The notes under the pieces are model-generated. The model worked only from the letters and a program-made list of their open reading frames with translations, had not been told where the DNA came from and made no database searches. Below are positions 1,263 to 15,172 of a stretch of DNA of 19,979 nt, one piece after another. This stretch comes from Flavobacteriales bacterium (lineage in GTDB: Bacteria > Bacteroidota > Bacteroidia > Palsa-965). The stretch is taken from positions 1 to 19,979 of the forward strand of contig JBEIPA010000049.1 of the NCBI GenBank assembly GCA_040377305.1, given 5' to 3'. Within the stretch, counting starts at the first letter, position 1, and every line of letters starts with the position of its first letter. Made by a program: the position numbers and the translations under genes.

Positions 1263-3956
1263 ATGGCTAAGGGAAAAGCAGTGGTAAACGGTGTAGTAGA
1301 AACACCGCTGATGAAGCAGTACAACGCAATCAAGGCGAAATATCCTGACGCGTGTTTATTGTTTCGTGTGGGTGACTTCTACGAGACGTTTGGTGAAGAT
1401 GCTATTCGTGCTGCTGCGATTTTGGGAATCGTGTTGACGAAGCGGGCAAATGGCGCTGCAGCATATATTGAACTCGCCGGATTTCCGCATCACTCTTTGG
1501 ATACGTACTTGCCGAAATTAGTTCGTGCCGGATTGCGTGTTGCTATTTGCGATCAGCTCGAAGATCCGAAAATGGTGAAGGGAATTGTGAAGCGCGGAGT
1601 AACAGAACTGGTGACTCCCGGCGTTTCCTTCAACGACAAAGTACTCGATCACCGTTCGAATAATTTCCTTGCGTCGGTTTACACCGAAGGAAATGTTGCG
1701 GGCGTGGCCTTCCTCGATGTTTCGACAGGAGAGTTTCTCTGTGCGGAAGGAACACATGTTTACGTAGAAAAATTATTGCAGAATTTTCGTCCGGCAGAAG
1801 TTCTTTTTCAGAAGAGCAGAAAAACGGAAATCAATTCTTCATTTGGAACACAGCTTCATTTCTTCGGATTAGAAGATTGGGTGTTCACAACGGATTACGC
1901 CAACGAAAAAATATTGCGCCACTTCAATGTGCTTTCTCTAAAAGGATTTGGCGTTGATCATTTCACGTGCGGAATTATTGCAGCTGGTGCAGCGATTCAC
2001 TACCTCGCCGATACGCAACACGATAAAGTTCAGCACATCACTACGCTTTCACGACTGGAAGAAGATTCCTACGTGTGGTTGGATCGTTTCACCATTCGCA
2101 ACCTCGAGTTATTTGGCTCTGCGAATGAGCGTGCAAGAACATTGATTGATGTAATTGATCACACCACCACTGCAATGGGCGCACGATTGCTCAAGCGATG
2201 GGTGGCATTGCCTTTGAAAGATATTTCGCAGATCAATGAGCGACTAGATGCTGTGGAAGCATTGTGCGCATTCGACTCAGCTCACTCGGACAATGCAATT
2301 CTTGCTGATGCGCTTTACACGCAGCTACGCAACATTGGTGACCTTGAGCGTATTGTTGCAAAAGCTGCCGCGGGAAGAATTTCTCCTCGTGAAATTGTTC
2401 AGCTCAAACGTGCACTTGATGCGGCTGAGCCTGTGAAGGAAATGTGTCTGAGCACAGGAAAGCAAGGACTCATACACATCGGAGAAAAACTCGATTTGTG
2501 TGTTGCCTTGCGTGAACGAATCGGTCGCGAAGTGAATGAAGATGCTCCGGCATTGCTGAACAAGGGAAATGTAATTGCTGAAGGTGTGAATGCTGATCTC
2601 GATGAGCTTCGCAGTCTTGCTTATGCCGGAAAGGATTATCTGCTGCAGTTACAACAACGCGAAATTGAGCGGACGAAAATTCCTTCATTGAAAGTCGCAT
2701 TCAACAACGTGTTCGGATATTATCTCGAAGTTTCGAATGCGCACAAAGACAAAGTTCCGGTTGAATGGATTCGCAAGCAGACGCTCGTGAATGCGGAGCG
2801 TTACATTACTCCGGAGCTGAAGGAATACGAAGAGAAAATTCTTGGCGCCGAAGAAAAAATCGCGTCGATTGAATTTCGTTTATACAACGAACTCGTTGCT
2901 TCACTGGGAGAATGGGTTGTGAAGATTCAGGTGAATGCTGCACAGCTGGCGAAATTGGATTGTCTGCTTGGATTCTCACGTCTTGCGAAGAGACAGAGTT
3001 ATGTTCGTCCGCATGTGAACGATTCGTTGATCATCAATATCAAAGCAGGACGGCACCCGGTGATTGAACAGCAATTGCCCGAAGGAGATTCGTACATCGC
3101 CAATGATATTTACCTCGATCCCGCAGGTCAACAGGTTTTGATGATAACCGGTCCGAACATGTCGGGTAAATCGGCGTTGCTGCGTCAGACTGCTTTGATT
3201 GTATTGCTTGCGCAGATCGGTTGTTTCGTTCCTGCAACACACGCAGAAATCGGAATGGTCGACAAGATTTTCACGCGGGTAGGAGCGAGCGATAATATTT
3301 CTTCCGGTGAATCTACGTTCATGGTAGAGATGAATGAAACGGCGAGTATTCTGAACAATCTCACAGAGCGCAGTTTGATTCTTCTCGATGAAATCGGTCG
3401 CGGTACAAGTACGTACGACGGTATTTCCATTGCGTGGTCGATTGCAGAATTCATTCACGAACAACCGAAGGCAAGAGCAAAAACTTTGTTTGCAACACAC
3501 TATCACGAGTTGAATGAGATGTCGGAACAGTTTCCGCGCATCCGCAACTTCAATGTGAGTGTGAAGGAAGTGGGCAACAAGATCGTTTTCCTTCGCAAAC
3601 TTTCTCCTGGTGGAAGCGAGCACAGCTTTGGTATTCACGTAGCGCGTTTGGCCGGAATGCCGAAGCGTGTTGTGGAGAGAGCGGAAGATGTGTTGAAGCA
3701 GTTGGAGAAGAGTCATGCGGCTGAATTGCAGTCATCCCTCGGTACGACTGAATCTTCTGGACAAGCTGCTCCGCTGTTTAAGAAGTCTACCCGGTCTGAC
3801 AATTCTGATGAGGAAATGCAATTGAGTTTCTTCAAGCTGGATGATCCTGTTCTCGAGAACATTCGTGAGGAAATACTGAATACAGACATCAACAATCTCA
3901 CACCTGTTGAAGCGTTGATGAAGCTGAATGAGATTAAGAAGTTGTTAGGCAAATAG
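1263..3956 (+). CDS. mutS: DNA mismatch repair protein MutS (MutS1)
   Basis: TPLMKQY and [10 protein letters not shown] mismatch-binding motifs, Walker [18 protein letters not shown], Walker [21 protein letters not shown]; 897 aa. Confidence 0.99.
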
Positions 3957-12888: not shown

Positions 12889-12960
12889 CACAGACGCAAA
12901 ATTAGCAGAGGAAAGTGTTATACGTGTAAGAGTCGTGTCGGATGGGTGAAATATTGTGGC

Positions 12961-12995
12961 AAAAAATGAAAAGAGCAGCAATTCTGCTGCTCTTT
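12961..12995 (-). terminator. Intrinsic terminator of the tRNA unit
   Basis: 11-bp stem AAAGAGCAGCA/TGCTGCTCTTT (12970-12995) followed by a T-rich tract on the minus strand. Confidence 0.8.
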
Positions 12996-13039
12996 GTACC
13001 CGGGACGGGACTTGCCTTTAGCGAGTCCCTCTTGTGTCT
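12996..13039 (-). pseudogene. Partial, degenerate copy of tRNA-Leu (3' 19 bp exact, plus D-arm/anticodon-stem remnant)
   Basis: GTACCCGGGACGGGACTTG at 12996-13014 is identical to 13175-13193. AGTCCCTC(TT)GTGTCT at 13024-13039 matches tRNA bases 13226-13239 with a 2-bp insertion. Confidence 0.8.
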
Positions 13040-13046
13040 TCGTCAA

Positions 13047-13169
13047 AATGGAAAGGTCAAATCGCAGGGCGATTTACCTTTTGTATTTGCACCCGATTAC
13101 TTGCGCAAGCGCAGCATTCCGGTGCAAATACAAAAGGGGATTCAGCTAAAGCTTCATCCCCTTTCCATT
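13047..13169. mobile_element. Nested-palindrome non-coding element (REPIN/MITE-like) between tRNA-Leu and its partial copy
   Basis: 10-bp terminal IR (13047-13056/13160-13169), 17-bp central IR (13077-13093/13121-13137) and two flanking hairpins (13052-13081, 13133-13164). Mobility is inferred, not shown. Confidence 0.6.
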
Positions 13170-13175
13170 CATAAG

Positions 13176-13258
13176 TACCCGGGACGGGACTTGAACCCGT
13201 ACAGCGTTACCGCCAAGGGATTTTAAGTCCCTCGTGTCTACCATTCCACCACCCAGGC
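13176..13258 (-). tRNA. tRNA-Leu (anticodon TAA)
   Basis: GCCTGGG/CCCGGGT acceptor stem, D-arm GGTGGAATGGTAGACAC, anticodon arm AGGGA-CTTAAAA-TCCCT, long variable arm and T-loop GGTTCAAGTCC; CCA not encoded. Confidence 0.97.
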
Positions 13259-13272
13259 AATGTCATGTGAAC

Positions 13273-13297
13273 AAAAAAAAACCTCTCCGAGGAGAGG
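13273..13297 (-). terminator. Terminator-like hairpin between tRNA-Gly and tRNA-Leu
   Basis: On the minus strand CCTCTCC-TC-GGAGAGG is followed by T9. Confidence 0.5.
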
Positions 13298-13306
13298 AAA
13301 AAAATG

Positions 13307-13379
13307 AGCGGAAGACCGGTCTCGAACCGGCGACCTTAACCTTGGCAAGGTTACGCTCTACCAACTGAGCTACTTCCGC
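13307..13379 (-). tRNA. tRNA-Gly (anticodon GCC)
   Basis: GCGGAAG/CTTCCGC acceptor stem, D-arm GCTCAGTTGGTAGAGC, anticodon arm AACC-TTGCCAA-GGTT, T-arm GCCGGTTCGAGACCGGT; 73 nt. Confidence 0.98.
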
Positions 13380-13402
13380 TATTATTCAAATCAATCGTCG
13401 GA

Positions 13403-13448
13403 TTACGCTCTACCTCTCGATAACTATCGGGATGAGCTACTTCCGCTA
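13403..13448 (-). pseudogene. 5' fragment copy of tRNA-Gly with an 18-bp palindrome in the D-loop
   Basis: 13403-13414 equals 13351-13362 and 13433-13448 equals 13366-13381. The intervening AAC is replaced by TCTCGATAACTATCGGGA (13415-13432). Confidence 0.85.
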
Positions 13449-13472
13449 AAAAGAACGTTTTCTTTGGGACGA

Positions 13473-13480
13473 CAAAAATA
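13473..13480 (-). promoter_or_regulatory. -7 promoter element (TATTTTTG) of the tRNA unit, followed by a boxA-like GTTCTTT leader
   Basis: TAnnTTTG match on the minus strand; GTTCTTT at 13450-13456 lies just before the tRNA-Gly fragment. Confidence 0.65.
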
Positions 13481-13642
13481 CGACTCGTGACCACTTCTCA
13501 AAGGATTTAATCATGATTTTCTGCATTTTTCGAAGAAATTTCTTCAAAACACAGTATTAAGCGTGACTATTCGGGTATTCGACGTTATAGTTGAGCGGTA
13601 TAAGGCCTTCTACCACATTTAGATGCGTAATTTTAACTGAGC

Positions 13643-15172
13643 ATGAAGAACATAAGTTTACTTATTTGGGTTCTGTTTATTACAATTCATTGTAATTCTC
13701 TGAATGCGCAGAGCAGTACCATTGCAGCATTTGGCGACGATCAGATTGCAGGCAGTAATCATATCAGGCTAAGTGATGGTAGTGTTCTTATAGGTAGTGT
13801 CTGGATATGCGATACGTTTATGCTTTTCACCAAGGTGGACGAAAATCAGAGTGCAGTGTGGTCCACTAAAATCAGGACCCCATCGTGGTATACGGGAGTG
13901 TTGGATCCAGTGGTACTTCACGAATTGTCCGACGGAAGTGTAGTGGCTCTTCTCACAGGCACAGCTCTTATCGTCAGAATTTCTCAGAGCGGAACAATTA
14001 TCTGGAGAAGAGAAATGAAAGACACAACCATCACAGCAGTCGGTTACAACAACTTTGGTTGGGATATGACGGTCCTTCCGGGAGACCGCATTGTCGTTTG
14101 CGGCATTACTCAACCTGCAACGGTATGGGCGCAACGTGGATGGATTGAGAATCTTGACATTGATGGCAATCTCGTTTCGTCGCGCGCGTATGATTCAGGA
14201 AGTTTTGATTGTTTCTATAATATTACAGCTAGCGGTGACGGTGGTTATACGGTTATTGGCGACGCGCTTTCGGATAATGCTTGTGTTCTGCATCATTTTG
14301 ATTCTGCCGGAACAATTGTGTGGAGCAGGTATCACACCAAAAGTCAATTTCCCTTCATGAGATATGGAAAGTTGATTTGCACCAGCGATAACGGTTACCT
14401 GATGGTTGGTGATACGGCCTATTTTACAAATGGTGTTGTGATAAAATTCGACAGCACCGGTGGATACGAATGGTCGCAATCATATACCGGACCGTCAACA
14501 GTTGAAATGTTCACGGATGTGGTGGAAGATTCTCAGGGATTTGTAATCACAGGAGTAACCCAGTGGCATGGACTGTTACTTTGTGTTGATAAACAGAATG
14601 GAAGTATTGTATGGAAGACGACTGTCGCATCAGGGTTCTTTAATTCAATCGAACTTAATGCGGGTGGTCTGGTCGCTTGCGGTTCGTCGGATATTATTAC
14701 CGGATTTGGCTCCGATGCCCATCTGTATTACTTCAGTGTGAATGGAAATCTGAATTGTTTCTCGACGAATATGCCCTTAACAGCGACTGTGGCAAATCCT
14801 TTCGTGGCCACCACAGGATCAACCCTTGTGTTGGGTGGAGATACATGTATGACTGTTCAATCTGTTGGTGCATTACATCCGTTAACGTTGGAATATACCG
14901 GATGTCCTGTTGGCATTGATGAGCATAAGGAAGTTGAAGTGTCGGTATTCCCAAATCCATCAGCTGGAATATTTAGTGTGTCGTGCTCCGAGCCGAACTG
15001 CATGGCATTCATCTACAATTCCTCAGGAGCATTAGTCCGGGAAATTGAAATGGAAGTTGGAGAAATTAAAATCGATCTATCTGACGAAGCCGATGGATTT
15101 TATTTTCTTCGTTTGATGAGCGGAGACCGCGAAATCGGAGAACAGAAACTCGTGGTCAAGAACATTGAATAG
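13643..15172 (+). CDS. Secreted beta-propeller-like repeat protein with T9SS type A sorting domain
   Basis: Signal peptide ending LNA-Q; repeated D..G...W.. blade-like motifs (DSAGTIVWSRY, SDNGYLMVG, DSTGGYEWSQSY); CTD VFPNPSAGIF...GFYFLRL...KLVV. Confidence 0.88.
   Translation: MKNISLLIWVLFITIHCNSLNAQSSTIAAFGDDQIAGSNHIRLSDGSVLIGSVWICDTFMLFTKVDENQSAVWSTKIRTPSWYTGVLDPVVLHELSDGSVVALLTGTALIVRISQSGTIIWRREMKDTTITAVGYNNFGWDMTVLPGDRIVVCGITQPATVWAQRGWIENLDIDGNLVSSRAYDSGSFDCFYNITASGDGGYTVIGDALSDNACVLHHFDSAGTIVWSRYHTKSQFPFMRYGKLICTSDNGYLMVGDTAYFTNGVVIKFDSTGGYEWSQSYTGPSTVEMFTDVVEDSQGFVITGVTQWHGLLLCVDKQNGSIVWKTTVASGFFNSIELNAGGLVACGSSDIITGFGSDAHLYYFSVNGNLNCFSTNMPLTATVANPFVATTGSTLVLGGDTCMTVQSVGALHPLTLEYTGCPVGIDEHKEVEVSVFPNPSAGIFSVSCSEPNCMAFIYNSSGALVREIEMEVGEIKIDLSDEADGFYFLRLMSGDREIGEQKLVVKNIE

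Follow-up and report, generated by a model that had tools for sequence, protein, structure and literature searches.

The window, by which we mean the whole 19,979-nucleotide stretch of DNA analysed here, carries on its minus strand a tRNA-Gly(GCC) gene that is preceded by a broken front half of itself. Read on that strand, a TAnnTTTG motif leads through a GTTCTTT leader into the broken copy, which we call the stump; a spacer, the intact tRNA-Gly(GCC) and a tRNA-Leu(UAA) follow. The features are these:

13499..13502, minus strand: TTTG, a possible -33 element judged from the sequence, 18 nt before the -7 element
13473..13480, minus strand: TAnnTTTG, Bacteroidota-type -7 promoter motif (putative promoter, by motif match only)
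13447..13456, minus strand: end of the host leader, GTTCTTT, which in the sister genome G015 runs directly into the intact tRNA-Gly
13433..13446, minus strand: first part of the stump, tRNA-Gly nt 1-14, without any difference from the intact gene (direct repeat D2)
13415..13432, minus strand: 18-nt palindrome of the TCCCGATAGCTATCGGGA family with two substitutions, in place of the D-loop GTT
13403..13414, minus strand: tRNA-Gly nt 18-29 of the stump, stopping 3 nt into the anticodon stem (direct repeat D3)
13380..13402, minus strand: 23-nt spacer, beginning with TCCG and ending in a second leader unlike the host leader
13306..13379, minus strand: intact tRNA-Gly(GCC) (ARAGORN; Rfam, 69.6 bits)
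13282..13297, minus strand: terminator-like hairpin and T-run after tRNA-Gly (match to consensus only)
13175..13258, minus strand: intact tRNA-Leu(UAA), second gene of the pair (ARAGORN, Rfam)
12996..13174, minus strand: 179-nt tRNA-linked unit with long hairpins inside, whose last 19 nt copy the 3' end of tRNA-Leu

We take TAnnTTTG to be the Bacteroidota promoter consensus, and the motif lies within 260 nt upstream at 19 of 20 loci compared in the genus. TTTG is read as a possible -33 element by its resemblance to the consensus, the spacing being slightly under the usual value, and the GTTCTTT leader is presumably boxA-like. An earlier note on this DNA had described a promoter-proximal 5' fragment of tRNA-Gly with a hairpin in it and an intact copy 23 nt further on; coordinates and exact repeats confirm this, both pieces of the stump matching the intact gene exactly as direct repeats of 16 and 12 nt. 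The note's D-loop replaced by an 18-bp palindrome stands in part: the insertion does lie there and is 18 nt long, but only three of the eight D-loop bases are gone, and the palindrome is an imperfect copy, two substitutions away from its consensus. Bases were indeed replaced rather than duplicated, since the insert stands for GTT, D-loop nt 15-17 of the intact gene, and a target duplication is absent. The unit from stump to gene measures 67 nt, lies between the promoter motif and the intact tRNA-Gly and, by an ORF check of the locus, contains no ORF and hence none of integrase size. tRNA-Gly(GCC) is a single-copy gene, the sole one among 52 ARAGORN tRNA calls in the assembly; a relaxed ARAGORN search allowing introns gave 1127 mostly spurious calls and was set aside. 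The TCCG that begins the spacer resembles what a decayed second hairpin might leave and may possibly be one, at the junction where the relative G003 has an anticodon-arm hairpin.

One point in favour of an assembly artefact is that in the best-matching sequencing run (X1) the unit is not spanned by any one contig. Run X2, however, has a 390-nt contig that covers 13330-13719 with two differences, one of which (at 13423) brings back the consensus centre of the palindrome. Because X2 comes from a study other than that of the best-matching run, its contig rules out the mis-assembly that the earlier note had considered. The same structure also recurs at 92 GTDB loci, including one on a complete isolate chromosome, and the probability that we assign to an artefact is close to nil.

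The 179-nt unit beyond tRNA-Leu is a phenomenon separate from the stump. It is missing whole from one X2 contig, and comparable 3'-end copies are found 144-162 nt past eight tRNA genes of this genome. This unit and these copies resemble the tRNA-linked repeats of E. coli.

The stump lies within the predicted transcript, and in the predicted fold its plug stacks on the D-stem. These features could suit a selected leader RNA that tunes the processing or transcription of tRNA-Gly. Against this, the 67-nt unit has an unremarkable fold (z -1.73), the relatives G015, G005 and G001 have no stump, and both length and hairpin vary freely. We thus consider a regulatory role a very remote prospect, and the locus itself is probably inert debris.

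The plug belongs to a dispersed family. In the 5.2-Mb genome TCCCGATAGCTATCGGGA has 15 exact copies (18-19 by another count), 33 with at most one mismatch and 43 with at most two, whereas 12 shuffled palindromes of equal composition gave no match at up to two mismatches in 11 cases and two matches in the remaining one. With a family of 43 the palindrome is not unique, and the earlier note was right to suspect a unit that is dispersed and, it appears, mobile. For a second family, TCCGCCGCGGCGGA, 28 copies show at most one mismatch. Long ORFs (at least 150 aa), which make up 84.5% of the genome, contain just 4 of the 43 TCCCGATAGCTATCGGGA copies and 1 of the 28 TCCGCCGCGGCGGA copies. Judged by eye, most TCCCGATAGCTATCGGGA copies sit inside other small repeats, which we take to be REP-like, and the flanks of the 43 copies vary without a fixed tag. 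Because a single one of the 43 lies in a tRNA piece, the hairpin is not tRNA-specific; the present locus is also the sole place where an 18-mer copy comes within 300 nt of a tRNA gene. Across the phylum, exact TCCCGATAGCTATCGGGA occurs in 38 of 401 genomes (reversed control, 0), and 35 of these 38 fall among 99 other genomes of the same class.

How the palindrome enters its targets can be read from empty sites, for which both 10-nt flanks of each copy were sought elsewhere in the genome without the insert; such sites are paralogues rather than proven ancestors, and repeat copies are not independent. This resolved 36 of the 71 copies of TCCCGATAGCTATCGGGA and TCCGCCGCGGCGGA combined. Unlike the target-site duplication of IS elements and MITEs, bases are lost on insertion: exactly three at 29 of the 36 sites and 4-10 at the other seven. 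Random sites used as a control were resolved in 3 of 150 cases, none of the three at three bases. All 15 three-base sites of TCCCGATAGCTATCGGGA in this genome read G-Y-Y on one strand, which corresponds to about seven distinct host sites only, so that the 15 are not independent; the TCCGCCGCGGCGGA sites are looser in sequence, and a third palindrome family (nine copies) replaces an inconsistent length. At 20 of 28 foldable sites the triplet that is lost overlaps the loop of a predicted hairpin, allowing 2 nt on either side; 11.5 would be expected. In other genomes, leaving out copies selected by the search pattern itself, 25 of 44 distinct copies were resolved, 14 at three bases (7 of the 14 being G-Y-Y) and 11 at other lengths. 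At four loci (L168, L214, L219, L089) the palindrome sits inside another copy of itself with three bases lost. We therefore hold with great confidence that this is a mobile palindrome obeying a three-base rule. It is a fixed sequence, distributed phylum-wide and located mostly at or near hairpin loops, namely those of REP-like repeats, tRNA arms and its own copies.

Stumps are common at the same gene in related genomes. In the genus, 20 loci have an intact tRNA-Gly(GCC) with DNA upstream (seven further loci, where this gene is missing, were left out), and by eye a stump is present upstream in 10 and absent in 10; this is the comparison in relatives that the earlier note had proposed. A strict pattern found only 3 of 27 genomes; decayed stumps escape it, so the loci were inspected instead. 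The plug is of the TCCCGATAGCTATCGGGA family in the genome under study (G000), G008, G020 and probably G023, other hairpins fill the stumps of G019, G004, G006 and G013, a perfectly plugged stump stands at a contig end in G007, and the upstream stump of G003 has no D-loop hairpin. On a MutS tree of 25 genomes (including G012), three sister pairs, G000/G015, G004/G005 and G008/G001, disagree on the stump, with G015, G005 and G001 as the members that do not carry one. The presence of a stump thus changes even between sister genomes. The stump-free member of every pair agrees with the upstream leader, as either a gain or a precise loss would predict, and the direction is not set by the empty sisters because recombination between the 14-nt repeats would also give the empty state. 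The second leader at our locus is not that of the host, which hints that the unit was imported. The G004 locus has a second leader that is an exact repeat of its local first one. Elsewhere in G000, stumps with hairpins also stand upstream of a tRNA-Arg(CCG) gene on contig C30 and of tRNA-Met genes on C33 and C47, involving two other palindrome families.

Two observations concern the surroundings of the gene. In many genomes of the genus, tRNA-Gly has mutS a short way upstream and on its own strand; here mutS lies 9 kb away on the opposite strand (window 1263-3956), and this shifted position suggests a local rearrangement. In G015 (L016, contig C217) an ORF begins about 100 nt after tRNA-Gly and parts it from tRNA-Leu by about 530 nt.

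Beyond the genus, an exact scan of GTDB for plugged D-arms returned 92 loci. Bacteroidota account for 78 of the 80 titled matches; the other two, L074 and L110, carry the titles Burkholderiales and Bifidobacterium, and mis-binning is likely because L110 is nearly the same as the Bacteroidota locus L069. An intact cognate tRNA gene follows 47-560 nt downstream in 75 of the 92 (Phe 33, Gly 26, Trp 8, Lys 6, Thr 2). Six of the other 17 have less than 150 nt of DNA left, and the 11 inspected by eye comprise four with the cognate gene downstream, two with the stump downstream of the intact gene, three where the DNA ends first and two with further pseudo-copies. In total the stump lies upstream of the intact gene at 79 of 92 loci and downstream only at two, which have no later intact copy in the available sequence. 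D-loop-plugged copies are stumps, and nearly always they stand upstream of an intact cognate gene. Stump and local gene agree fully in the acceptor strand in 69 of 75 cases, over 21 isotype or sequence variants, and stumps therefore arise repeatedly from local or closely related genes. Past the D-arm, 64 of 75 stumps lose their identity to the gene within 5 nt, and at 13 of 92 loci a second hairpin begins no more than 12 nt from the D-arm. Tandem arrays of 2-5 units are present at eleven loci, and in the nine arrays compared the units are nearly identical. One locus, L122, holds a full-length spare copy that was hit three times, in the D-loop, the anticodon arm and the T-loop.

These data bear on the order of events. 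The earlier note had the hairpin invade the D-loop, with gene duplication preserving function; spelled out, the live, single tRNA-Gly(GCC) gene would have been hit, and only cells that duplicated it again would have survived. This order would explain why the stump stands directly behind the host promoter and leader of a gene that is single-copy in the assembly, and putting GTT back yields a full tRNA in none of 108 plugged copies (the 62 nt behind the insert were tested). An intact template would nevertheless have been needed at the moment of the hit, and stumps that were never plugged in the D-loop (G003) as well as multiply plugged, full-length spare copies (L122) are contrary cases. A rescue of this kind would also leave the nuclease genes of the long units described next without a role, and we consider it improbable.

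Ten of the GTDB units are long (519-560 nt). Nine of them enclose a gene for a GIY-YIG protein of about 97 aa and the tenth encloses a broken one, a larger pattern that was out of the earlier note's view; at this locus no nuclease gene was found. In the long form a promoter motif and stump are followed by the GIY-YIG gene, a second promoter motif with leader, and the intact tRNA; 10-45 nt of leader are repeated before the intact gene, and the promoter motif too in the four units inspected. The cassette proteins are single-domain (85-104 aa) and score above the PF01541 cut-off in 7 of 7 tested, including 3 of 3 from long units. In a profile search of the PDB their nearest solved structures are UPF0213 and SLX1, and they are 28-38% identical to an Ssn-like protein of this genome. 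Five further GTDB loci have a GIY-YIG gene just after the tRNA, and 61 of the 75 have none nearby. Within the GTDB set, every long unit with a GIY-YIG gene sits at tRNA-Phe or tRNA-Thr and none at tRNA-Gly; the 10 genus stumps at tRNA-Gly(GCC) have no nuclease gene in the 170 nt upstream of the intact gene.

Approached from the protein side, a profile built from seven cassette proteins was positive in 21 of 400 phylum genomes. A tRNA gene lies within about 1.5 kb at 19 of the 23 distinct nuclease loci and the palindrome at 9 of 23; with a broader profile, 26 genus nuclease loci, examined out of about 100 matches and including L279 from G012, on which no claim rests, have a tRNA gene in 23 cases and the palindrome in 7. 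The background is 62 of 2000 random windows of this genome containing the palindrome. Within the same class, 12 of the 17 genomes with the nuclease carry exact copies, as do 23 of the 82 without it; Fisher's test gives p 0.002, a value that kinship among the genomes makes too strong. The linked subfamily has no match at E<=1e-15 in the genome under study, nor in 25 of the 37 other palindrome-positive genomes. At 56 viral-contig loci with the exact palindrome no GIY-YIG match lies within 400 nt, the flanks there being too short to inform.

G000 has tRNA-lodged GIY-YIG cassettes of its own, at tRNA-Arg(CCT) on C49 and beside tRNA-Met 3' pieces on C21. On C49 (161766-162210; L027 1363-1800), the D-loop of an old tRNA-Arg(CCT) is interrupted by two inverted halves of a hairpin, complementary at 12 of 13 nt. 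Between them stand an intact tRNA-Arg(CCT), distinct from the old one, and then a GIY-YIG gene that runs with its last codons into the 3' part of the old tRNA-Arg. Because the halves that bracket this cassette belong to a hairpin other than the palindrome, we also tried a split-ends model in which the palindrome would be an excision footprint. The right half of the palindrome before GGTAGAGC with an unrelated left side was sought in metagenomes with a pattern that would catch only about a quarter of such cases; seven of eight matches were chance, non-tRNA sites and the eighth was a palindrome within a palindrome, so that the model gained no support.

Several other nuclease loci are recorded as observations in their own right. 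On C21 of G000 (1-480; L028), the GIY-YIG gene lies between tRNA-Met-like 3' pieces, the second of which has a 30-nt GC-rich T-loop hairpin. On C56 (71349-71770; L031), an Ssn-like GIY-YIG gene is flanked by hairpin repeats that start with CGTC, one of them with a 14-nt palindrome. At L241 (G182, C44), the 18-mer is found just within the start of each of three tandem GIY-YIG ORFs, where the net gain of 15 nt would preserve the reading frame. At L235 (G290, C9), the layout of stump, nuclease and intact gene recurs at an apparent tmRNA gene.

Could the stump instead be what is left of an integrase-type island, one that had entered at a 5' attachment site and later lost its content? Islands catalogued by Islander are 2-200 kb by filter and require a tyrosine integrase (PMC4383910), and van der Gulik 2023 (PMC9897764), in the portion accessible to us, ascribes tRNA fragments to integration and CRISPR only. 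As in the integrase islands covered by those accounts (PMC4383910, PMC9897764), an intact gene is accompanied by a fragment, here and at 75 of 92 GTDB loci a 5' fragment upstream in the same orientation. Islands with an upstream 5' fragment do exist, at 159 of 3919 in the part of the Islander report available (PMC4383910), a share that agrees with the earlier note's remark that a 5'-end duplication is atypical of integrases. The present units differ in measuring 47-560 nt, far below island size, in carrying the plug inside the fragment, which an island would not explain, and in having no integrase, the GIY-YIG ORF being the only gene found in the long units inspected; neither an integrase nor an island is present at our locus. 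We regard an island scar as highly improbable.

A more substantial alternative is that a short tandem duplication gave a spare front half, into which, as an unselected dead copy, a palindrome spread by a different enzyme, perhaps a REP-associated Y1 transposase, landed later. Ten Y1_Tnp (Y1 transposase) matches in the genome offer possible movers. The residence of most copies in REP-like repeats, with just one in a tRNA piece, would be expected of a passive hit, as would the stump of G003, the triple hit on the full spare copy of L122, the exactly repeated leader of G004, and the filling of the same site by different hairpins in different relatives. Left unexplained by this account are the marked preference for upstream over downstream placement, the GIY-YIG gene in nine of the ten long units, and the second leader at our locus, which differs from that of the host. 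We judge it unlikely on these grounds.

Among known systems, the closest in content are the Ssn single-strand nucleases with their NTS/SRM hairpin repeats (Chenal et al. 2025, PMC11893778). In both cases single-domain GIY-YIG proteins of about 95 aa (<150 aa) are tied to short dispersed hairpin repeats, and the gene-plus-hairpin layout suggests mobility (PMC11893778). SsnA cuts beside its own repeat (PMC11893778); pasting with a three-base loss, in contrast, is not described in the sections of that paper at hand. The words 'tRNA', 'Bacteroid' and 'Flavobact' do not occur in its main text, as far as this was accessible (PMC11893778). The published degenerate SRM pattern, as given in the available text of PMC11893778, has no match in window 12900-13700, in the nine long units or at the 23 phylum nuclease loci, and as it also missed the Ssn-like gene on C56 its sensitivity in this phylum is doubtful.

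The closest in placement is SegB of phage T4 (PMC2330249), a free-standing GIY-YIG gene among tRNA genes whose product recognises a conserved tRNA-gene motif and which spreads with tRNA genes. The cassette genes likewise sit at tRNA genes, in the two proportions given above for the phylum and the genus (19/23 and 23/26). Unlike these cassettes, SegB is a phage enzyme that makes a double-stranded cut at a 27-bp T-arm site and acts through gene conversion between phages (PMC2330249), and neither a partial tRNA duplication nor a hairpin plug forms part of the SegB account in the pages available (PMC2330249). By analogy, the present system might work like a blend of Ssn/SRM and SegB.

REP elements of the GTAG/CGTC families with their Y1 transposases (Di Nocera 2013, PMC3733652) share with the 18-mer that they are short, mostly intergenic palindromes, some of them nested in other palindromes (PMC3733652). 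Unlike those, the 18-mer has no GTAG/CGTC abutting its stem (PMC3733652); it is instead a passenger in REP-like repeats and tRNA loops with a three-base replacement rule. 'GIY' and 'target site' do not occur in the accessible text of PMC3733652. Nested GTAG/CGTC REPs are thus known, but neither the TCCCGATAGCTATCGGGA family nor the three-base rule appears in the literature compared, to the extent available (PMC3733652). A literature search, with most subscription journals outside its scope, found no published description of the arrangement and no paper containing the palindrome string; a system of plugged stumps is apparently undescribed in print.

We consider it likely that the locus is a gene-less instance of a wider system. 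That the stump is a relic of, or kin to, a GIY-YIG cassette we think probable, and we also favour, somewhat less firmly, the fuller account in which the 67-nt unit is a truncated spare front end with palindrome, the gene-less remnant of a tRNA-lodged GIY-YIG cassette, which likely arose by the following steps. On single-stranded DNA, a small GIY-YIG nuclease would nick the hairpins that tRNA genes form. A unit with its own leader and tRNA nt 1-14 could then recombine in on the 5' side of the cut, leaving the front half of the host gene plugged and an intact gene rebuilt behind it. Through its plug the unit's own copy would escape cutting, and more units could enter at the rebuilt gene, giving tandem arrays. 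Loss of the nuclease gene together with the second promoter would reduce the cassette to the 67-nt form. The same or a similar nuclease may paste free hairpin into other hairpins, with three bases lost each time. We give slightly less than even weight to the proposal that the nuclease itself writes the hairpin. The most general formulation, that in Bacteroidota very small GIY-YIG nucleases insert a hairpin of fixed sequence, 14-18 bases long, into DNA hairpin loops at the cost of three bases per insertion and lodge their own gene in like manner at tRNAs, with the target rebuilt and without transposase, integrase or reverse transcriptase, is offered tentatively and we ourselves hold it to be doubtful.

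If this formulation is true, the palindromes would be among the smallest mobile elements, and nuclease and palindrome together a minimal site-directed DNA writer; a hairpin-inserting nuclease of such size would have interest as a tool. The target rule (three bases lost, G-Y-Y in the case of TCCCGATAGCTATCGGGA, near hairpin loops) makes the mover directly assayable. Should the link to the nuclease hold, it would suggest what a set of so far uncharacterised GIY-YIG proteins, about 95 aa in length, might do, and it would name a source for the widespread tRNA-gene debris and intergenic palindromes of Bacteroidota, which tRNA and island finders miss.
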